A stretch of 23,216 nt of DNA from Promethearchaeota archaeon (GCA_016930515.1 JAFGGO010000103.1:1-23216), one strand, 5' to 3'. Counted from the stretch's first letter, positions 4,185 to 21,270 are shown. The notes: generated by a model from the sequence alone, not told the origin. Numbers and translations are program-made.

Positions 4185-6155
4185 TTGGTAGAGGAAAAAA
4201 ATAATATAATGAAAACAATCCCAAAAATAGAAGCTAAAAATGGTAAGAATAAATTAAATGCCGCTGAACCCGAAAAAGCAACTAAATGTTTGGGGCCAGT
4301 TCTTAACTTAGAAGAATATGTCCGTAGAGACTGGTGGAACCACATCTTTAACTCTTATTATCTTAAAACGGACGGGGATGTTGTCAACGATAAAAATATT
4401 ACTTCTTCAGAGGTTGATCTTTTTTCCGACATTCTCAAATTACAACCAGATCAAGAGATATTAGACTTATGTTGTGGGCAAGGAAGACATTCTTTAGAGC
4501 TCGCAAGGAGAGGATTTAATCGCGTCAATGGTCTTGATAAATCTCGATATCTCATTCAAAGAGCTAAGCGTGTTGCGAAAAAAGAATTCTTACCTGTTGA
4601 TTATCGTATTGGGGATGCTCGAAAACTCCCATACGAAACAGACCGCTTTGATGTGGTGTTTATTTTAGGAAACAGTTTCGGTTATTTTGATACTATTAAC
4701 GACGATCTTCGTGTCTTAAGAGAGGTTAAACGAACGCTTAAACCTTGGGGTCGGATCTTAATCGATCTAACCGATGGGGAATATTTAAAAAAGAATTTCC
4801 AACCCCGTTCATGGGAATGGATAGATAAAAATCATTTTGTCTGTAGAGAAAGATCTTTATCTATAGATAAGCAGAAATTAATTTCGAGAGAAGTCATCAA
4901 TCATGTGAATGAGGGTGTCTTGGTGGACCAATTTTATTCCGAAAGGCTTTATTCGAGGAATAAGATATCAGAATTGTTGATTAAAGCTGGCTTTACCGAT
5001 GTAATATTTCATCAAGAAATATCCCCCAATTCTACGAGAAACCAAGATTTAGGAATGATGGAGAGGCGTTTAATTATTAGCGCACGCGTGAGAAAGCAAT
5101 GGAAACAAAAACACCATAAAATAGTGAAATCTCCAAAGACAGTTGCCGTCATATTAGGAGATCCTAAAAAACCAGATATCTTAAAACCGTCTAGCGTCTT
5201 TGACGACGACGATTTCTTTACCATTGATAAGCTTAAAGAAGCTTTAATTGAATTAGAAGATAAGGAATTCATATATCTTAACAATCACGACACGCTTATT
5301 GCCGACCTTACGAAATTGAAAGGTAAAATCGATTATGCTTTTAACCTATGCGACGAGGGATACAACAATCACGCCAGGCAAGAGTTGCATGTTCCTGCTT
5401 TGTTAGATCTTCTCAAAATTCCTTATACGGGTTCTGGTCCCCAGTGCTTGGCGTTTTGCTACGATAAATCGTTAGTTAGGGGGATCGCTAAAGAAATGGA
5501 CATTCCTGTCCCTGAAGCTATCTTCATTAAACCCGGAGATACTGTTTTTGATCTTCCGTTATACTTTCCTGCACTCGTTAAACCAAACTTTGGAGATTCG
5601 AGCTTCGGTATAACGCAAGATTGCGTGGTCAATAATGGAGAAGAGTTACTTAACGCTATTTCAAAAATTCGCGAAACTTTTGGATACACATATCCAATTC
5701 TAGTTGAACAATTTCTCACGGGAAAAGATTTAACTCTAGGAGTAATCGGTAATCCTCCAGGAAATCACATTGTCCTTCCAATTGCGGAAGAAGATTATTC
5801 TGATTTACCTCCTGGTTTGCCAAAAATTTGTGGATACGAGGCAAAATGGCTTCCCGAATCACCCTATTGGAATTTAAAATCGATTCCCGCAGTATTACCA
5901 GACAAAACGATAGAAATTATCGAGTCTTGCAGTTTAAAATTGTTTGAAAGGTTGGAATGTCGCGATTACGCTCGTTTTGATTGGAGATTAGACGCTGAAG
6001 GCAATCCAAAACTGCTTGAAGTAAATCCCAATCCTGGTTGGTGTTGGGACGGACACCTCGCAAAAATGGCTAAATTTATGGGCCTTTCGTATAATGAAAT
6101 GCTTAAAGAAATACTGAAAGCGACTGAGAGTAGAATATCAAGTAGTTTACCCTAA
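4185..6155 (+). CDS. Fusion of a class I SAM-dependent methyltransferase and a D-Ala-D-Ala-ligase-like ATP-grasp domain
   Basis: N-half ILDLCCGQGRH, GLDKS, GDARKLP, LKPWGRILID; C-half PYTGSG, YDKS, VKPNFGDSSFGI, LVEQFLTG, YARFDWR, EVNPNPG; start could be ATG at 4209. Confidence 0.88.
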   Translation: MVEEKNNIMKTIPKIEAKNGKNKLNAAEPEKATKCLGPVLNLEEYVRRDWWNHIFNSYYLKTDGDVVNDKNITSSEVDLFSDILKLQPDQEILDLCCGQGRHSLELARRGFNRVNGLDKSRYLIQRAKRVAKKEFLPVDYRIGDARKLPYETDRFDVVFILGNSFGYFDTINDDLRVLREVKRTLKPWGRILIDLTDGEYLKKNFQPRSWEWIDKNHFVCRERSLSIDKQKLISREVINHVNEGVLVDQFYSERLYSRNKISELLIKAGFTDVIFHQEISPNSTRNQDLGMMERRLIISARVRKQWKQKHHKIVKSPKTVAVILGDPKKPDILKPSSVFDDDDFFTIDKLKEALIELEDKEFIYLNNHDTLIADLTKLKGKIDYAFNLCDEGYNNHARQELHVPALLDLLKIPYTGSGPQCLAFCYDKSLVRGIAKEMDIPVPEAIFIKPGDTVFDLPLYFPALVKPNFGDSSFGITQDCVVNNGEELLNAISKIRETFGYTYPILVEQFLTGKDLTLGVIGNPPGNHIVLPIAEEDYSDLPPGLPKICGYEAKWLPESPYWNLKSIPAVLPDKTIEIIESCSLKLFERLECRDYARFDWRLDAEGNPKLLEVNPNPGWCWDGHLAKMAKFMGLSYNEMLKEILKATESRISSSLP

Positions 6156-12178: not shown

Positions 12179-12433
12179 GTGAATGATGAAAATAAGGAAA
12201 ATATTGATATTGCCGAAGAATTAGACACGAGGGGTTTGTTTTGCCCAGAACCATTATTCGAAACGAGGACCTTGTCGGAAAAGCTAGAACCAGGTCAATG
12301 TTTTAAAGTAATTGCGGACGATCCAGCAGCAGACGAAGACCTTCATAGATGGGCCAAGCGAACAGACACTCAAGTGGTTGAATTTAGAAAGGAGGGACAA
12401 GATTTAATATTCATTTTTAAAAAAACCAAATAA
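12179..12433 (+). CDS. tusA: TusA/SirA-family sulfur carrier protein
   Basis: LDTRGLFCPEP (CPxP), VIADDPAA-D-HRW; RBS AAGGAGGT upstream of GTG. Confidence 0.9.
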   Translation: MNDENKENIDIAEELDTRGLFCPEPLFETRTLSEKLEPGQCFKVIADDPAADEDLHRWAKRTDTQVVEFRKEGQDLIFIFKKTK

Positions 12434-12451
12434 AATAGAGATGATAAGAAA

Positions 12452-12808
12452 ATGGCGAAAAAATTATTATATATTCAAACAAGCGACGCTCCAGAACGCC
12501 AATATTCCCCCTTAGTATTAGCACAAACAGCAAAAGCAATGGACCTCGAACCCACTGTATATTTTCTTGGCATGGGTCTTAAAATACTAAAACCAGGGGA
12601 AGCAGAAAAGATTAAACTCGGCAACTTTCCAAGCATGAAAGAAATGATCGATAAAACCTTAGAAATGGGAATTGAAATATTGGTATGTGAAGCCTCAAAG
12701 CGCATGCTTGGATGGGATACGGTTAAACTCATTCCAAACGTGAAAATAGTGGGTGCTGCGACTTTAAACGATCTGGTATTAGAAGCTGATGGAACTTTAT
12801 GGTTTTAA
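12452..12808 (+). CDS. DsrE/DsrF-like sulfur relay protein
   Basis: 118 aa; YFLGMG, GIEILVCEAS (conserved Cys), IVGAATL...EAD C-terminus. Confidence 0.85.
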   Translation: MAKKLLYIQTSDAPERQYSPLVLAQTAKAMDLEPTVYFLGMGLKILKPGEAEKIKLGNFPSMKEMIDKTLEMGIEILVCEASKRMLGWDTVKLIPNVKIVGAATLNDLVLEADGTLWF

Positions 12809-12856
12809 ATCAAATGAAAATAAAAGAAATTTAATTATTAAAAAGAGGTCAAAAAT

Positions 12857-14053
12857 ATGAGCAATTATTTGGATTATCAAGCGGCAAAACCCGTGGATAA
12901 AAGAGTTCTAGATGAGATGCTACCTTACTTTAGCGAAAAATACGCAAATCCTTCCTCCTTACACGCTGATGGAGACGTCGCTACCAGAGCTCTCGACGAA
13001 TCGAGAGAAAAAATATCATTTTTTTTAAACGCTCCGGAGGGGTCGAGCATCGTATTTACTTCAAGCGCAACCGAATCGAATAATTTAGCCATAATCGGAT
13101 CTGCCTTGAGAAATAAAAGGAAGGGCACTCACATTATTATATCAGAAATCGAACACATTTCAATACATAACATTGCCAAATACCTTGAAAGAGAAGGATT
13201 TACAATCAGCAAGCTTCCCGTGGACCAATATGGTATCGTTAAAGTTGAAAAACTCGAAAAATTGATTAGAGACGATACAATTTTAATTTCCATTTCGACC
13301 GCAAGCAACGAGGTAGGTTCGCTACAACCAGTCGAAGAAATTTCAAGGATCGCCCAGAAGCACGGCGTTTTGTACCACGCTGACGCGGTTGCAAGCGAGG
13401 CCACCGTGCCTTTAGACTTGACTAACACTCCCATAGACATGCTCACGCTTTCATCCAACGATATTTACGGCCCTAGGGGCGTTGCTGCCTTATACATGAA
13501 AAAAGGCGTGAGAGTAAATCCACTTATCATTGGTGGTGGTCAAGAAATGGGAATGCGCTCGGGTTCGGAAAATATTCCAGGCATAGTAGGATTTGCGAAA
13601 GCGGCAGAAATCGCAAAATCCGAAATCAAACAAGAAGGGCCTAGGCTTTCTGGACTTAGGGACAAGCTCATAAAAGGCGTGCTTGAAACGATACCTAAAT
13701 CGCACTTAAACGGTCACCCAGAAAAGCGACTTCCGCACAATGCTCATTTTCGATTTGATTATATCGAGGGAGAATCCCTAATTCTTGGATTGAAAGATCA
13801 AAACATTGCTTGCGCCACGGGTTCTGCGTGTAGTTCGAAAACGCTCGAACCATCTCATACACTCATCTCAATGGGACTCTTACACGAAGAGGCACACGGT
13901 AGCTTGGTGGTCACTCTAGGCAGGTTCACGCAAGATTCGCACATTTACGAATTGCTCGAGTCGTTGCCAAAAGTCGTGAAGCGCTTGCGATTATTATCTC
14001 CGTTGACCCCTCCCGATTTACTAAAACAAATAAAAGAAGAAGGTGAGAATTAA
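12857..14053 (+). CDS. iscS: IscS/NifS-family protein lacking the PLP Schiff-base lysine (Archaeoglobus-type)
   Basis: YLDYQA, ANPSSLH, FTSSATESNN, EHISI, GGGQE-RSGSEN, ATGSACSS (Cys325); canonical SxHK reads SSND (Asp202, codon 13460-13462). Confidence 0.92.
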   Translation: MSNYLDYQAAKPVDKRVLDEMLPYFSEKYANPSSLHADGDVATRALDESREKISFFLNAPEGSSIVFTSSATESNNLAIIGSALRNKRKGTHIIISEIEHISIHNIAKYLEREGFTISKLPVDQYGIVKVEKLEKLIRDDTILISISTASNEVGSLQPVEEISRIAQKHGVLYHADAVASEATVPLDLTNTPIDMLTLSSNDIYGPRGVAALYMKKGVRVNPLIIGGGQEMGMRSGSENIPGIVGFAKAAEIAKSEIKQEGPRLSGLRDKLIKGVLETIPKSHLNGHPEKRLPHNAHFRFDYIEGESLILGLKDQNIACATGSACSSKTLEPSHTLISMGLLHEEAHGSLVVTLGRFTQDSHIYELLESLPKVVKRLRLLSPLTPPDLLKQIKEEGEN

Positions 14054-14845
14054 ATGCCAAAATCAACCGATTACACGGATAAAGTAATGGACCATTTTAG
14101 AAATCCCCGAAACGTTGGTTTTATCGAAAAAGCAGACGGTTACGGCAAGGTTGGAAATCCCGTATGTGGAGACCTAATGGAGATTACCCTAAAGATTGGG
14201 AAAAATGACAAGCAAGAAGATATCATTGAAGACATAAAGTTTAGAACATTTGGATGCGGATCTGCCGTGTCAACTTCTTCGATGGTAACCGAAATGGCCA
14301 AGGGCATGACTCTTGACGAGGCGTATAAGATCACTAGATCTGATGTGGCCGAAGAACTGGACGGTCTCCCACCAATAAAAATGCATTGCTCCAACCTCGC
14401 TGCCGATGCCCTCAAAGCGGCCATTGATAATTATAGGAAAGGGTCAAAACCCGAAATAGAAATTGTAACCTCGTGTCAATTAGAAGTACGCGTGATACTC
14501 GGATTTGACGAACTTCTCGGCAAGGGCGCCTATAAAATCGTTCCTAATTTAGAAGTTTTGAAAGGAAAGAGAACATTGGTATCTGATACGGGAGATAAAT
14601 CCCTAGAACTCGCTCTAAATTTAACGGAATACACGGGTCGAGTCATACTCGTGACGTCTGCAAAAGAGATTCCAGGTACCGTTGAGCTTCGAGATCGTCT
14701 TAAAAAATCCGATGTGAAAATCCTACATCAATCCGAATTATTAGAAGTCAAGGGAACCGACGAGGTTGAAAAAGTAATCATACACGATTACGACGAGGAT
14801 AACAATTACGAACTATTCGTGGACGCAGTTGTTGTATTAGAATAA
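14054..14845 (+). CDS. iscU: IscU/NifU-type Fe-S scaffold with a C-terminal degenerate thioredoxin-reductase NADPH-binding-like domain
   Basis: DHFRNPRNVG, NPVCGD, TFGCGSA, LPPIKMHCS (three Cys ligands); about 134-aa extension; ATG directly abuts the iscS stop (TAA|ATG). Confidence 0.9.
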   Translation: MPKSTDYTDKVMDHFRNPRNVGFIEKADGYGKVGNPVCGDLMEITLKIGKNDKQEDIIEDIKFRTFGCGSAVSTSSMVTEMAKGMTLDEAYKITRSDVAEELDGLPPIKMHCSNLAADALKAAIDNYRKGSKPEIEIVTSCQLEVRVILGFDELLGKGAYKIVPNLEVLKGKRTLVSDTGDKSLELALNLTEYTGRVILVTSAKEIPGTVELRDRLKKSDVKILHQSELLEVKGTDEVEKVIIHDYDEDNNYELFVDAVVVLE

Positions 14846-14933
14846 AACCTTAAAAATTCAATTTTTTTTCTTAATTTTTAAAAAACAAATCTAGAAATGT
14901 CCCTATTGCATTTATTCTGATCATTATTCGATT

Positions 14934-15716
14934 TTATTCTACATAAATATGTTTTAAAAGCTCTGAAATCTTGTAATCTTTTTGCCACAGTTCCGATTCT
15001 AAATCCTTGCATCTTATCTTAATATCAACCGTTTTCTCTCTCAACGAATCTAACTCGCTTTCTTTAAGCTCCAAAAGTGCCATTTTTTCCTTTAACTTAT
15101 TATTTAGATACGCCATTTTTTTTTGCTCTGAAGAGTTTTGCACTTCGAGATATAAGATCTCCAAATTCGATAACGAATGCTTTACCGATTCTAATTCTTT
15201 TTCGTTGTTAATAGCTTTTTGTTTTAAAATCTCGTTCTCGACCATTAGTTCTTGAGCTATATGGCATTTATTCTGATAATCGCTTTGAATTCCTTCCAAT
15301 TCGTTTTTGAGGTTTTTAATAAGGAACTTTTGCGAATTTAATTTTGATTGGAGATCGTCGACTAAGACTTGAAATGGTGGTTTTTCCCGATCTATTCGAA
15401 TAACCGAACCGATGGTAGATGTTTTTTTAGTTTCGACTTCAATCTTACGTTTAAGATCAATGTTTTCCTTTCTTAAAAAACCCAATTTGTCTTTTAACTC
15501 TCGAATTTCTAAATCTTTTTCTTCCAAGCGTTTGATAAAATTATCTTTATCTTTTTTTGAAGGTTTGTAATTTGGATCAGCCATCTCTAACTTGCTTAGT
15601 TTTTCCTCCAATTCGCTTATTTTTTCTTTATAGGAATAGATCTCTACTTCTTTTTTTTCCAAGAGAAATTCCAATTCGTCAATTCGGAAATTCGTATTTC
15701 TATTAAATTCTATCAT
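14934..15716 (-). CDS. Hypothetical coiled-coil protein
   Basis: 260 aa, K/E/L-rich heptad pattern, no recognisable catalytic motif. Confidence 0.75.
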   Translation of the reverse strand: MIEFNRNTNFRIDELEFLLEKKEVEIYSYKEKISELEEKLSKLEMADPNYKPSKKDKDNFIKRLEEKDLEIRELKDKLGFLRKENIDLKRKIEVETKKTSTIGSVIRIDREKPPFQVLVDDLQSKLNSQKFLIKNLKNELEGIQSDYQNKCHIAQELMVENEILKQKAINNEKELESVKHSLSNLEILYLEVQNSSEQKKMAYLNNKLKEKMALLELKESELDSLREKTVDIKIRCKDLESELWQKDYKISELLKHIYVE

Positions 15717-15854
15717 TCAAAATCAATGTAATGTTTAATTTAAGCTTATTTTTCAATTGGAAAAATTCGAAATTAAGCGTTTTACATTGAAACTATATAG
15801 TCTATATCGATATTTAATATATTATTAATAAATGTTTGAGTTGTGTTCTATTCT

Positions 15855-15869
15855 AAAAGGTATATTAAG
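15855..15869 (+). promoter_or_regulatory. Putative BRE/TATA promoter AAAAGGTATATTAAG
   Basis: About 100 nt upstream of the CoA-disulfide reductase; near-identical to the element at 19701-19716. Confidence 0.4.
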
Positions 15870-15969
15870 TTGTGCTCTTGAAATCTTTAGAAGGACCTTT
15901 AAATACGGGCCACTATTAATTACAAGTAGAATTATTGATTAACAAGATATTAAAACGATTGGATAAAAA

Positions 15970-18339
15970 ATGGACAAAGTTGTAATCGTAGGAGGCGTCG
16001 CAGGCGGCGCCACTGCTGCCGCTCGTTTGCGGCGCCTTCGAGAAGACGTGGAAATCGTCGTTTTTGAGAAAGGAAGCCATGTTTCATTCGCGAATTGTGG
16101 TTTACCTTATTATATTGGACACGTTATTAAAGACCGGGAACAATTAGAGCTCATGACACCAAAGGAATTTTACGAAAGATTTCGGATCAATATTAAAATC
16201 GACCACGAGGTAATCTCGATTAAACGGCAAGAAAAAGTTGTCGTCGTGAAAGACTTGAAAAGTTCAAAGACATTTGAAGTTGCTTACGATACTTTAGTGC
16301 TCTCTCCGGGAGCCGCACCCATCGTTCCTCCCTTTAAAGGGATTGGAGACGTCCCCGTCTTTAGTTTAAGGACTATTCCAGATTCGGTAAATATTAAAAA
16401 TTATGTCGAACAGAAAGATGTCAAGCACGCAACGATCATTGGTGGCGGCTTCATTGGTCTTGAAATGGCCGAGAACCTGAAGGGTCGGGGAGTGAGAGTA
16501 AAGATCGTCGAAATGCTCGATCAAGTAATGGCCCCGCTTGACAAGGAAATGGCGCAATTCGTTCATCAAGAACTCATTTTAAACGGCGTGTGCCTTCAAC
16601 TCGAAGACCCCGTGGATTCTTTCAAGTGCGAAAACGAATGTAATTATGTGGTTCCTAAAAGTGGTAAAACTATAGAGACGGACATGATCGTTTTGGCAAT
16701 TGGAGTGAAACCGGAAAACGCCTTGGCAAGGGAGACGGGACTTGAATTAGGCCCTCGAGGACATATCGTTGTTGACGATCACATGCGCACCTCGGATCCG
16801 GCAATTTTCGCCGTAGGAGATGCCGTCCAAGTGAAAAACCGGATAACTCAAGCGGAGGCTTTTATTCCACTTGCAGGTCCAGCCAACAAGCAGGGAAGAA
16901 TTGCCGCGGACAACATTGCTGGTAGAAATACTACTTATGCAGGAGTTTTAGGTGCTTCAGTGGTAAAAGTCTTTGACTTGACCGTATCCACCGTTGGATT
17001 GTCCGAAAAACAATTAAAGGATACGACAATTCAATACGAAAAGATCTATGTTCACCCCAACAATCACGCTGGTTATTACCCAGGAGCAGTACCAATAACC
17101 CTCAAGCTCCTTTTTGAAGTACCTTCTGGCAAGATATTAGGTGCTCAAGCGGTGGGAGGTCCTGGCACTGAAAAGCGCATCGATGTGATTGCAACGGTCA
17201 TTAAATTCGGCGGTACCGTGTTTGATCTGGAGGAATTGGAACTCACCTACGCTCCCCCATATGGATCAGCTAAAGGTCCCGTAAACATGGCGGGATTCGT
17301 TGCTTCAAACGTGCTCAAGGGAGACATGCCCATCTGGCACTGGCACGATATTGAAAAGGTCAAATCGGATGATAATAACCTTCTCTTAGATGTGAGGACA
17401 GTTGAAGAATACAATATCGGAACGATTGAAGGCGCTATTAACATTTCTGACCTAGAACTCCGAGATAGATTGACAGAAGTTCCCAAGGACAAGCAAATTT
17501 ACATCTTTTGCGAAGTAGGGTTTCGTGGATACTTGGCAACGAGATTAATGAAACAAATGGGGTACGAGCACGTGTACAATCTCACGGGGGGGTACAAGTT
17601 ATTTGAAATGGCGCAAGCAACAACCGAGGAAATTGCAGCTGCGTGTGCGACGAGCGAAGATGTGGTTGTAGAAATGGTCAAAGAAAAATCCAAGGTATCT
17701 GGCGACGTGGTTGAGATAGACGCGTGCGGGTTATCGTGCCCTGGACCGTTAAACGCCATGATCAAGGGCTTGGAAAACATATCCGATCACAAAAAACTCG
17801 TGATTTACGCCACCGATCCAGGTTTTAAATCGAGCGTCGAAGCTTATGCCAAGCTCAATAAAGCCGTACAGCTACTCTCGCTTGGAAAGTCCGAGGGAAA
17901 GCTAGTAGCAACGCTCCAAAAAGGCGGTGCAACCGAAGAAGATATTTCTGCTCCGGTAAGGATCAAGAAAAAATCCCGAAAAGAGCTCAGGGGTACGAGC
18001 GCTCCCCCGATCTCGGAGATATCTGCAGACGAGCTTTACGAAAGCTTAGAGACGGACCACGCTCCCGCCCTCTTGCTCGATGTGCGCACGCCTAACGAGT
18101 ACTACGGGCCGCACGGACACATAAAATCGTCCAAGCTCATACCTTTAGGAGACATGATGGGAAACATTGCTTCTCTGGAGCAATACGCCAACGAAGAAGT
18201 TGTCACTATCTGTCATAGCGGGGCGCGATCCATGATGGCGGCTCAACTCCTCGCTCAAGCGGGATTTAAGGACGTGAGAAACTTGACCGGCGGCATGATG
18301 GTGTGGAACCGGAAAGGCTTGCCAAAATATCAGGATTAA
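15970..18339 (+). CDS. CoA-disulfide/persulfide reductase (Npsr/Cdr-like) fused to rhodanese, TusA-like and a second rhodanese domain
   Basis: GGVAGG FAD motif, SFANCGLPYY active Cys, IGGGFIGLE, AVGDA, YAPPY; rhodanese 1 LDVRT...IFCEVGFRG; TusA DACGLSCPGP; rhodanese 2 LDVRTPNEY...ICHSGARS. Confidence 0.92.
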   Translation: MDKVVIVGGVAGGATAAARLRRLREDVEIVVFEKGSHVSFANCGLPYYIGHVIKDREQLELMTPKEFYERFRINIKIDHEVISIKRQEKVVVVKDLKSSKTFEVAYDTLVLSPGAAPIVPPFKGIGDVPVFSLRTIPDSVNIKNYVEQKDVKHATIIGGGFIGLEMAENLKGRGVRVKIVEMLDQVMAPLDKEMAQFVHQELILNGVCLQLEDPVDSFKCENECNYVVPKSGKTIETDMIVLAIGVKPENALARETGLELGPRGHIVVDDHMRTSDPAIFAVGDAVQVKNRITQAEAFIPLAGPANKQGRIAADNIAGRNTTYAGVLGASVVKVFDLTVSTVGLSEKQLKDTTIQYEKIYVHPNNHAGYYPGAVPITLKLLFEVPSGKILGAQAVGGPGTEKRIDVIATVIKFGGTVFDLEELELTYAPPYGSAKGPVNMAGFVASNVLKGDMPIWHWHDIEKVKSDDNNLLLDVRTVEEYNIGTIEGAINISDLELRDRLTEVPKDKQIYIFCEVGFRGYLATRLMKQMGYEHVYNLTGGYKLFEMAQATTEEIAAACATSEDVVVEMVKEKSKVSGDVVEIDACGLSCPGPLNAMIKGLENISDHKKLVIYATDPGFKSSVEAYAKLNKAVQLLSLGKSEGKLVATLQKGGATEEDISAPVRIKKKSRKELRGTSAPPISEISADELYESLETDHAPALLLDVRTPNEYYGPHGHIKSSKLIPLGDMMGNIASLEQYANEEVVTICHSGARSMMAAQLLAQAGFKDVRNLTGGMMVWNRKGLPKYQD

Positions 18340-19774: not shown

Positions 19775-20359
19775 ATGAAAAAGACAGTAAAAAATTTAAT
19801 GGTTGCCTTCATCGGAGAATCGCAAGCGAGAAATCGCTATACGCAATTCGCAAAGCTGGCTAAAAAGGAAGGATACGCCTTAATTGCAAGCATATTCGAA
19901 GAGACGGCAAATCAAGAGAAAGAACACGCAGGTTGGAACTACAAGATGCTTCAAGATCTCAAAAAAGAAGAAGAATTTGACGAGCTTGAGGTAAAAGCTG
20001 ACGGCCCCACTACCTACGGATCTACGGTCGAAAACTTGACTTCCGCCATTGCAGGAGAAGACTACGAGTGGAAGGAAATGTATCCCGGATTCGCCGATGT
20101 GGCCGAAAAAGAAGGACATCCAAAAATTGCTGCTCGATTTCGAGCGATCGCCAAGGCTGAAAAACACCATTCCGAGCGATACGGCAAGCTTTTGAAACTC
20201 GTGGGGGACGATGCGTTTTTCAAGCGCGGCAAAAAAGTCGTTTGGGTATGCATGGAATGCGGCTACGAGGTAGAAATGGACTCTCTTCCCGAAGATTGGA
20301 AGTGTCCTTCGTGCGACCACCCAAGAGACAACTTTAAAATCAAGTGCGAGGAGTTCTAA
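19775..20359 (+). CDS. rbr: Rubrerythrin
   Basis: [33 protein letters not shown] di-iron motifs; C-terminal rubredoxin-like CMECG...CPSC. Confidence 0.96.
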
Positions 20360-20456
20360 TCCTTTTAACTCCCATTAAATCCATTTTTTATTATAAGTTA
20401 AGTCTAAACCAAAAACAACTAAGTCAAAAAAGAATCAAACAAGGAAGTGAATAAAC

Positions 20457-20846
20457 ATGCAAAAGAAAGAAATTTATAAGTGTCAAGTATGCGGAAAAGT
20501 CATCGAAATCCTGAATCCCGGCGCTCCCGAAACGATTTGCTGCGGCCAGGCGATGACCCTCATGAAGGAACAAACCGCAGAATGGAAAGGAGAAAAACAC
20601 GTGCCCAAAATCACGATCGACGGAAATAAAGTCACCGTGGATGTTGGAATTTCCATGGGCACCCCCCACCCAATGACCGCAGAGCATTGGATCATGTGGA
20701 TCGAGCTAATCTGCAAAAACGATTGCTACAAGCGCAAGTTTCTCAAGCCAGGGGACGAACCCAAGGCAACCTTCGTGGTGGCCGATACCACGGGATTAAT
20801 CGCCCGAGAATATTGCAACATACACGGACTTTGGAAGTATCAGTAA
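20457..20846 (+). CDS. dfx: Desulfoferrodoxin (class I, 2Fe superoxide reductase)
   Basis: CQVC...CCG desulforedoxin domain; EKHVP, HPM...H, CNIHG active-site ligands. Confidence 0.95.
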   Translation: MQKKEIYKCQVCGKVIEILNPGAPETICCGQAMTLMKEQTAEWKGEKHVPKITIDGNKVTVDVGISMGTPHPMTAEHWIMWIELICKNDCYKRKFLKPGDEPKATFVVADTTGLIAREYCNIHGLWKYQ

Positions 20847-21006
20847 ACATCTTTCGCTTATTTCAACCATAAAAATTACTTCTCACCTTTTTTTTTATAA
20901 GTATTAAACCTTAAGTTTATAAGTTATTGACAAAAGACCTAAACAAGAAAATTATCAAAATAAACAAAAGAGGTATAGAAAAACGACATTATCGAACATC
21001 CCCATC

Positions 21007-21270
21007 ATGCTGGAAAAAGTCAAGAAGGAAGACTTGGACAAGCAGATCTTGCGAGCGGGAATTTTGGCTGAGCTTGATGCCATCAACTTGTACGAGCAGA
21101 TGGCCAGCTTGACCGAGAACGCCGACTTGAAAAAAGTACTTTTAGACGTGGCCAAGGAAGAAAAAGAGCACGTGGGCGAATTTCAATACCTGCTGCTCAA
21201 GTACGACGCCCAGCAAGCGAAGGAATTGGAAGAAGGAATGGACGAGGTAAAAGAATTACTTGGTGAGTAA
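21007..21270 (+). CDS. Encapsulated-ferritin (EncFtn/Flp)-like ferritin-family protein; true start may be ACG at 20983
   Basis: ILRAGILAELDAINLYEQMA and DVAKEEKEHVGEF...LD motifs as in the Pyrococcus furiosus encapsulin-fused Flp domain. Confidence 0.85.
   Translation: MLEKVKKEDLDKQILRAGILAELDAINLYEQMASLTENADLKKVLLDVAKEEKEHVGEFQYLLLKYDAQQAKELEEGMDEVKELLGE

Follow-up and report, generated by a model that had tools for sequence, protein, structure and literature searches.

The stretch of Promethearchaeota archaeon DNA considered here (GCA_016930515.1 JAFGGO010000103.1:1-23216; 23,216 nucleotides, hereafter the window) carries a cassette of four genes, tusA, dsrE, a lysine-less iscS and an extended iscU, with a gene for a large reductase fusion downstream of it. 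The main finding is that tusA is a nearly constant neighbour of lysine-less IscS and is not found next to lysine-bearing IscS. On one tree of 143 IscS loci, with adjacency defined as a tusA within 600 bp, it adjoins 48 of the 53 lysine-less loci and 0 of the 90 lysine-bearing ones, so that the first-pass annotation, which had raised the co-occurrence of tusA and dsrE with lysine-less rather than canonical IscS, is clearly supported on this point. In the searchable literature, which did not cover subscription-only TusA reviews, no paper was found that links TusA or DsrE to lysine-less IscS, and the linkage appears to be undescribed in print. The reading that we prefer, with a probability of about 0.5, is that an entry enzyme loads persulfide sulfur onto TusA, DsrE acting as a second carrier, and that the sulfur then moves on to Cys325 of the lysine-less IscS and to the cysteines of IscU, where it would be reduced and built into a [2Fe-2S] cluster.

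The IscS protein of the window reads S199-S200-N201-D202 where active enzymes read S-x-H-K, Asp202 occupying the position of the Schiff-base lysine and Asn201 that of the histidine, and it has DAVA instead of DATQ or DAVQ. His100 and Asp176 are kept, and so is the mobile-loop Cys325, within GSACSS; the protein is thus the lysine-less IscS with Cys325 that had been described at first. Because the Schiff-base lysine is missing, it is expected to be unable to desulfurate cysteine. Its best match in the PDB is A. fulgidus IscS2 (4EB5/4HVK; E 1.7e-134, about 60% identity), which has the same SSND motif, and judged by its sequence it is a member of the known inactive A. fulgidus IscS2 clade; its score of 453 bits against TIGR03402, under the equivalog cut-off of 530.75, is as expected of a divergent member. 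The lysine site reads ND or NE in 118 of 120 close homologues, and the loop cysteine is present in all lysine-less IscS proteins sampled. A. fulgidus IscS2 has been reported to be inactive as a desulfurase, and its cysteine ligates the [2Fe-2S] cluster on IscU (PMC8918507).

The linkage with tusA was followed through four samples. The first, taken from named species genomes, comprised 80 loci with an IscS alignment, 13 of them lysine-less and 67 lysine-bearing; tusA is adjacent in 12 of the 12 lysine-less loci that have upstream DNA, and none of the 67 lysine-bearing loci has any TusA match within ±10 kb, searches with an iterated hidden Markov model included. Eight other lysine-less clusters at 50% identity formed the second sample, in which tusA and/or dsrE are adjacent in five, neither is adjacent in two, and one has a second aminotransferase-V gene in place of the carriers. 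It also revealed new arrangements of lysine-less iscS, namely iscS-dsrE2-tusA without iscU, and ThiS-MoaE-iscS-tusA-Mrp-ThiI. At further Asgard loci (the third sample), tusA accompanies 10 of 10 lysine-less genes and 0 of 2 lysine-bearing paralogues. The fourth sample covered a second archaeal phylum around a Methanoperedens genome, with 40 loci (21 lysine-less, 19 lysine-bearing): tusA adjoins 19 of the 21 lysine-less genes, another has dsrE alone and the last has neither gene, and tusA or dsrE was found at 0 of the 19 lysine-bearing genes. Seven genomes of this sample contain both kinds of paralogue, and in them tusA or dsrE lies only beside the lysine-less copy.

The linkage is maintained through rearrangement: tusA may lie on either side of the lysine-less iscS, and dsrE and iscU may each be present or absent. 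In one of the two lysine-less clades, clade A, translational coupling of iscU to iscS is nearly universal and tusA lies directly upstream; at locus L136, from an Archaeoglobi-type relative, where the IscS is about 75% identical to the crystallised A. fulgidus protein, the order is tusA-iscS-iscU. The range of the linkage covers Asgard archaea, Bathyarchaeia, Thermoplasmata, Archaeoglobi relatives and Methanosarcina-like genomes among the archaea, and Actinomycetota, Spirochaetota, Nitrospirota and Thermodesulfobacteriota among the bacteria. Across 201 Asgard genomes, cassette-type TusA and lysine-less IscS share their presence and absence at the level of families, both being found in f1, f2, f3, f4, f7, f12, f13, f16 and f19 and both missing in f5 (0/21), and a hand tally of coordinates places tusA within about 0.7 kb upstream of the lysine-less iscS in at least 95 of these genomes. 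Two Actinomycetota metagenome-assembled genomes (MAGs; L029, L030) and one Spirochaetota MAG (L051) have the complete Asgard-type cassette, down to the truncated flavoprotein domain at the end of IscU that is described below; their IscS proteins are 59-62% identical to that of the window and branch inside the Asgard group, which suggests transfer between domains.

Both carriers of the cassette retain a conserved cysteine. In TusA this is Cys22, within CPEP, and an ADDPAAxED motif resembles that of E. coli TusA; Cys22, Pro23, Pro25, Asp47, Asp48 and Asp54 are invariant across 15 cassette TusAs, and the window protein scores 44.6 bits against the E. coli TusA equivalog NF001423, below its cut-off of 78. 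DsrE, found in roughly half of the cassettes, has a single cysteine, Cys79 (VCEAS), which is invariant across 18 cassette DsrEs. A DsrE2 identity for this protein was ruled out (NF047629, 35.5 bits against a cut-off of 210). When TusA docks on IscS in E. coli, its Cys19 comes within about 4 Å of Cys328 of IscS (PMC2854127), and this proximity makes a reverse trans-persulfidation, from TusA to IscS, sterically plausible. A complex prediction for the lysine-less IscS and TusA in a 1:1 ratio, with our own alignments, scored 0.00 and gave no answer, speaking neither for nor against binding; the 1:1 set-up may have been wrong, because the TusA-facing cysteine loop comes from the second IscS subunit in E. 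coli. Two candidate interface signatures were discarded: the equivalents of E. coli IscS Asp52 and Arg55 do not distinguish lysine-less from lysine-bearing IscS, being conserved in both, and a charge swap between IscS Arg44 and TusA Glu34 found no covariation that held across 47 pairs.

The model proposed here takes the locus as a minimal ISC-type (MIS) assembly pair of the A. fulgidus kind, in which the lysine-less IscS would sit on IscU. TusA, and DsrE where present, would bind to this IscS as its dedicated sulfur carriers and would deliver sulfane sulfur as cysteine persulfide to Cys325 and/or to the IscU cysteines, a delivery that would replace the pyridoxal-phosphate half-reaction of an active desulfurase. 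The sulfur would then be reduced to sulfide on the scaffold, and IscU and Cys325 would hold the [2Fe-2S] cluster between them. The rhodanese and TusA domains of the downstream reductase fusion could possibly be the entry enzyme. This fusion would be an NAD(P)H-dependent handler of persulfide or polysulfide, a possible donor of electrons as well, and its extra TusA and rhodanese domains could feed the relay or trim its sulfur.

Several observations weigh against this model, or reduce what is new in it. Lysine-less IscS is not new in itself and has already been crystallised. At four to five lysine-less loci tusA is missing (L108, L111, L141 and P0210, with L138 having dsrE only). The lysine-less proteins form two well-supported clades on both trees, with only two changes of lysine state, so that the association rests on one or two ancient events followed by long retention; an independent-pairs test on the trees, with 1-2 independent contrasts, has no power. 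The linkage is therefore an old clade trait, long retained across wide distances and rearrangements, rather than one of repeated convergent origin. A conserved neighbourhood is a usual sign of functional coupling, yet there are fewer independent observations than the raw counts suggest. In addition, most genomes of the same family add a lysine-bearing IscS with a short IscU. The description of the system as cysteine-independent, as it had first been annotated, therefore fails family-wide, and the genome of the window also has a SufB-like gene of the SMS type. In L108 (3897-6635), a lysine-less IscS with a GSD motif and iscU are followed by a second aminotransferase-V gene and preceded by a gene with an FeS domain, a layout that may represent a different way of supplying sulfur.

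It has also been argued that such a pair could work with free sulfide, which is the published guess for the A. fulgidus IscS-IscU cluster, whose sulfur source was stated to be open (PMC8918507). Sulfide would then feed the lysine-less IscS and IscU directly, and IscS would be a docking hub or buffer for TusA and DsrE, which would serve molybdenum cofactor, thiamine, tRNA thiolation or carriers of the ThiS/MoaD type. In that sense, H2S rescues E. coli lacking iscS, and this rescue needs IscU (PMC13015791); according to a review, SMS and MIS systems can make use of sulfide (PMC13066941); and the source names of homologues point to anoxic settings of the sediment type for the organism. Some clade-B pairs of lysine-less iscS and tusA lie beside ThiS-MoaE, ThiI and Mrp/ParA, or beside MoaA, without iscU, which hints at roles in thio-cofactor synthesis, and ThiS and ThiF occur near the cassette in L107 and L022. 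However, an inactive IscS would be unable to load TusA, so that another source of persulfide would still be required, and the almost invariable clade-A order leaves tusA and iscU on either side of the lysine-less iscS. Moreover, the active canonical IscS, which does feed TusA in E. coli, never has tusA adjacent in the loci counted above. A supply by free sulfide alone is for these reasons rated as rather unlikely, although it is the most serious competitor of the carrier model.

The scaffold itself offers further indications on how the sulfur might be reduced. The ligand set of IscU is present (Cys38, Asp40, Cys68, His111 and Cys112) together with LPPIK, an LPPVK-like motif. Its C-terminal domain aligns with the NADPH sub-domain of true thioredoxin reductase (TrxR), the FAD domain being gone; it has no CxxC and no HRR, and SDTGDKS stands in place of GGGNTA, a weakened glycine motif. 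The extension of iscU reported at first is thus real and corresponds to a degenerate thioredoxin-reductase NADPH-domain. A linker cysteine, Cys141, is conserved among the long IscUs. Two loci, one in Asgard family f19 (L124 8007-9353) and one in a Methanoperedens genome, G201 (L138 6109-7485), encode IscU fused to a complete TrxR-like flavoprotein, in stop-to-stop open reading frames (ORFs) of 449 and 459 aa, respectively. In both, the FAD and NAD(P)H glycine motifs are intact, the CxxC pair is absent, and the gene lies directly after a lysine-less iscS; the flavoprotein part presumably resembles the ferredoxin-NADP reductases of the TrxR type. As far as the alignments can tell, the stub on the window IscU is the degenerate NADPH sub-domain of such an IscU-flavoprotein fusion. 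A recurrent tie between scaffold and flavoenzyme would suit a pathway in which persulfide sulfur on IscU must be reduced to sulfide, while these fusions say nothing direct about the separate reductase fusion downstream.

This downstream protein is, by its sequence, a genuine fusion of the coenzyme A-disulfide reductase-rhodanese (CoADR-RHD)/Npsr type, as had been claimed for it, and all four carrier cysteines are present: Cys43 in the CoADR part (SFANC), Cys514 in the first rhodanese (CEVGFR), Cys590 in the TusA domain (CPGP) and Cys748 in the second rhodanese. Its cofactor motifs are GGVAGG, GGGFIG and VGDA. Its first 550 residues align throughout with B. anthracis CoADR-RHD (3ICR; E 4e-181; residues 38-579 of 3ICR), with Shewanella Npsr (3NTA) and with Enterococcus CoA-persulfide reductase (8A56), and residues of about 570-789 make up the added TusA domain and second rhodanese. 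Its score with TIGR03385 is 520 bits, below the cut-off of 578.8. Those of its 120 best matches that have a named source all come from Asgard MAGs, in which the protein is annotated generically. Within the 201 Asgard genomes full-length matches to the fusion are restricted to family f1, where about 31 of 40 genomes have one; family f2 has a different form, of 840 aa.

The linkage of the fusion to the cassette, which formed part of the first description, stands for one family only and inside a larger syntenic block. In 25 of the 25 f1 genomes that have both on one contig, the fusion lies downstream of the lysine-less iscS and iscU on the same strand. The distance between the lysine-less iscS and the fusion ranges from 0.9 to 3.3 kb and is mostly about 1.0 kb, which leaves room for iscU alone; a 2.27-Mb contig (L022) has the order tusA-iscS-iscU-fusion, with a gap of 120 nt before the fusion. 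A fixed place of the fusion in the relay is called into question by four facts. Synteny extends over the entire block of about 12 kb (B12-binding protein, cassette, fusion, rubrerythrin, desulfoferrodoxin, CitMHS transporter, HAD phosphatase and acyl-CoA dehydrogenase). About a quarter of the f1 genomes and all other cassette lineages are without the fusion, and within f1 the genera g4, g6 and g8 have the cassette and no fusion. Variable genes lie between iscU and the fusion, a coiled-coil ORF here and HdrD-like and OsmC genes elsewhere: L167 (5110-6900) and L168 (5738-6871) have an antisense HdrD-like gene (Fer4_8 and CCG) in this interval, and L167 additionally an OsmC gene. Finally, in family f5, in which all 21 sampled genomes are without the lysine-less iscS and the cassette-type tusA, most genomes encode a two-domain CoADR-rhodanese of 570 aa, 56-61% identical to the N-terminal part of the window protein (e.g. 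G026:C1:2333835-2335484). Given the synteny block, the inserted genes, the genera without the fusion and the f5 enzyme that occurs without the lysine-less iscS, it is plausible that the reductase fusion is a lineage-specific accessory, and not an established part of the system.

From the same facts it could be proposed that the fusion acts outside Fe-S assembly altogether, in defence against reactive sulfur or oxidative stress or in sulfur respiration, and that it is found near iscU through inherited synteny. Its nearest solved relatives (3ICR, 3NTA and 8A56) are enzymes of stress or sulfur reduction; rubrerythrin, desulfoferrodoxin and an EncFtn-like gene follow 3' of it, as they do, wholly or in part, in L023, L167 and L168, with OsmC and HdrD-like genes before the fusion; the unrelated flanking genes of the block (for the B12-binding protein, transporter, phosphatase and dehydrogenase) are equally syntenic; and in the window iscU and the fusion have an antisense gene between them. 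The two-domain enzyme of f5 and the fusion-less genera of f1 point in the same direction. This explanation is nonetheless regarded as improbable, in view of the position of the fusion directly after iscU and on the same strand in most f1 genomes, of the full-length form with TusA and second rhodanese being matched only in the family in which its gene adjoins the cassette, and of the IscU-flavoprotein fusions of L124 and L138, which tie a pyridine-nucleotide flavoenzyme to the scaffold in other lineages. Conversely, the fusion could be the sulfur-activating step itself: working near equilibrium, it would use NAD(P)+/NAD(P)H and CoA to turn sulfide or polysulfide into rhodanese or TusA persulfide, to be passed through TusA and DsrE to Cys325 and IscU. 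We consider this quite improbable; if it were true, a flavoenzyme would replace the cysteine desulfurase of Fe-S biogenesis among the nearest archaeal relatives of eukaryotes.

The carrier model was also confronted with the rest of the genome (G000; 4.0 Mb, 190 contigs, 94% complete), in which the cassette lies on contig C156. No canonical cysteine desulfurase was found in this 94%-complete genome: the seven other aminotransferase-V matches, on inspection of their sequences, are AGXT-like, MfnA-like decarboxylase, aspartate-aminotransferase-like and KBL-like proteins, and none of the seven has the desulfurase cysteine loop. The single sampled congener (G168, 90% complete) yielded no canonical desulfurase either. 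The loss of the canonical enzyme may be real in this genus, with genome incompleteness as the alternative. The search for other assembly systems (SufBC or SMS) returned the SMS SufB-like gene already mentioned, and neither HscB (PF07743) nor an A-type carrier of the IscA/SufA kind (PF01521) was found. Three further TusA genes and three further DsrE-family genes are present. Contig C94 (about 23100-33640, minus strand; L165 3106-13641) bears a tusA-dsrEFH-dsrE2-like-hdrCBA-mvhD cluster, in the order tusA, two dsrE-family genes, dsrH, DsrE2-like, HdrC-like, HdrB-like (CCG), HdrA-like and MvhD, continued by an Oxidored_q6 protein, an 823-aa FrhB/GltD-like fusion and a second tusA; this gives the genome a second sulfur relay, linked to Hdr. 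Together with the extra TusA and DsrE genes, this cluster makes the cytoplasmic traffic of sulfane sulfur appear extensive. Two more short IscU-like genes with an N-terminal extension were observed (C166 12070-12435, minus strand; C32 27477-27839, plus strand), the copy on C32 being without the first cluster cysteine. Selenocysteine was considered for the C32 gene and rejected, the TGA lying upstream of the start codon.

The features of the window are listed in the table below. The five genes of the cassette and reductase are encoded where the first-pass annotation had placed them, on the plus strand, and its gaps of 18, 48 and 0 nt within the cassette are correct, the start codon of iscU abutting the stop codon of iscS. 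Its distance of about 1.1 kb between iscU and the reductase also stands, but the spacer is not empty, as an antisense coiled-coil ORF lies within it. Homologues of this ORF are found 4-5 kb upstream of the cassette in L022, L026, L027, L117 and L119, and in the closest relative, L023, it has the same position as in the window and is frameshifted. A repeat search around the gap between iscU and the reductase detected no terminal repeats or mobile-element boundaries. Because the homologues sit elsewhere in Lokiarchaeal loci and terminal repeats are lacking, its position looks like the result of a local rearrangement rather than of a mobile-element insertion; the ORF interrupts the cassette and is not considered part of the system. 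In a scan for bacterial promoters and terminators, a type of search whose scope does not extend to archaeal promoters, the sites were no commoner than in shuffled sequence. Upstream, the window also encodes a 699-aa DUF255 thioredoxin-like protein (850-2949) and a methyltransferase-ATP-grasp (Ddl-type) fusion (4185-6155). The nearest homologues of IscS and the reductase are found in Promethearchaeota/Lokiarchaeota MAGs, some of them labelled Hermod-, Hod- or Thor-.

Table. Genes and domains of the cassette and its surroundings, in coordinates of the window.
Feature	Position	Strand	Product and evidence
tusA	12179-12433	+	84 aa; PF01206 67 bits (cut-off 28.6)
dsrE (DsrE/TusD family)	12452-12808	+	118 aa; PF02635 57 bits, PF13686 58 bits
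lysine-less iscS (MisS-like, class I desulfurase fold)	12857-14053	+	398 aa; PF00266 228 bits
iscU, whole gene	14054-14845	+	263 aa
iscU scaffold domain	14054-14458	+	PF01592 160 bits; TIGR03419 190.6 bits (cut-off 187.9)
IscU C-terminal TrxR-like domain	14459-14845	+	PF00070 23.3 bits; TIGR01292 1e-10
coiled-coil ORF, antisense	14934-15716	-	260 aa; weak coiled-coil Pfam matches only
CoADR-rhodanese-TusA-rhodanese fusion	15970-18339	+	789 aa; Pfam domains
rubrerythrin, desulfoferrodoxin, EncFtn-like ferritin-fold gene	19775-21270		after reductase fusion

The sulfur supply of an IscS-IscU pair with a dead desulfurase is an explicitly open question for the A. fulgidus complex (PMC8918507), and it bears on the ancestral minimal Fe-S machineries that would have existed before cysteine became the sulfur donor. 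The presence of a carrier gene beside nearly every lysine-less IscS, in archaea and in several bacterial phyla, provides concrete proteins that can be purified. If TusA and DsrE are donors, the textbook direction from IscS to TusA would be reversed in many anaerobes, including Asgard archaea, methanogens and sulfate reducers, and the reductase fusion, together with the IscU-flavoprotein fusions, would hint at the origin of the reducing equivalents or of the activated sulfur.

Among the systems already described, the closest is A. fulgidus IscS2-IscU (4EB5, 4EB7 and 4HVK; D199K variant 4R5F), which is of the same clade and shares the SSND motif, the loop cysteine and the adjacent iscU. As published, it consists of IscS and IscU alone, whereas the window adds dsrE, the TrxR-like stub of IscU and the downstream reductase fusion. 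The MIS system (MisS-MisU; Garcia et al.) is similar in that the window has an S and U pair without a context of HscAB, A-type carrier or IscR. Reviews describe MIS as a desulfurase and a scaffold with no further parts (PMC13066941); its cysteine desulfurase is active, while that of the window is dead and has sulfur carriers attached. In M. acetivorans, IscS1 of the isc1 cluster (IscS1 MA0808, IscU1 MA0807) is also without the lysine. Two of the sampled loci (L163 and L164), with an SHT motif, tusA, a double dsrE and IscU ORFs of 225 and 214 aa, look to us like this isc1 type. Unlike the window, isc1 involves no reductase fusion, and the paper that describes it neither names nor interprets the isc1 neighbours.

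With the E. coli IscS-TusA complex (3LVJ) and TusBCD/DsrEFH, the cassette shares the protein families and the carrier cysteines, and Arg30, Asp48 and Asp54 of the window TusA correspond to Arg27, Asp45 and Asp51 of E. coli TusA. In E. coli, however, sulfur runs from an active IscS to TusA and on to TusD, and the genes are unlinked, whereas in the window IscS is inactive and the genes form one cassette; with IscS inactive, the flow of sulfur must start elsewhere. The reductase, finally, is like CoADR-RHD, Npsr and CoA-persulfide reductase (3ICR, 3NTA and 8A56) in its Cys43, its rhodanese cysteine and its FAD and NAD(P)H motifs, and it differs from these two-domain enzymes by the addition of a TusA domain and a second rhodanese.

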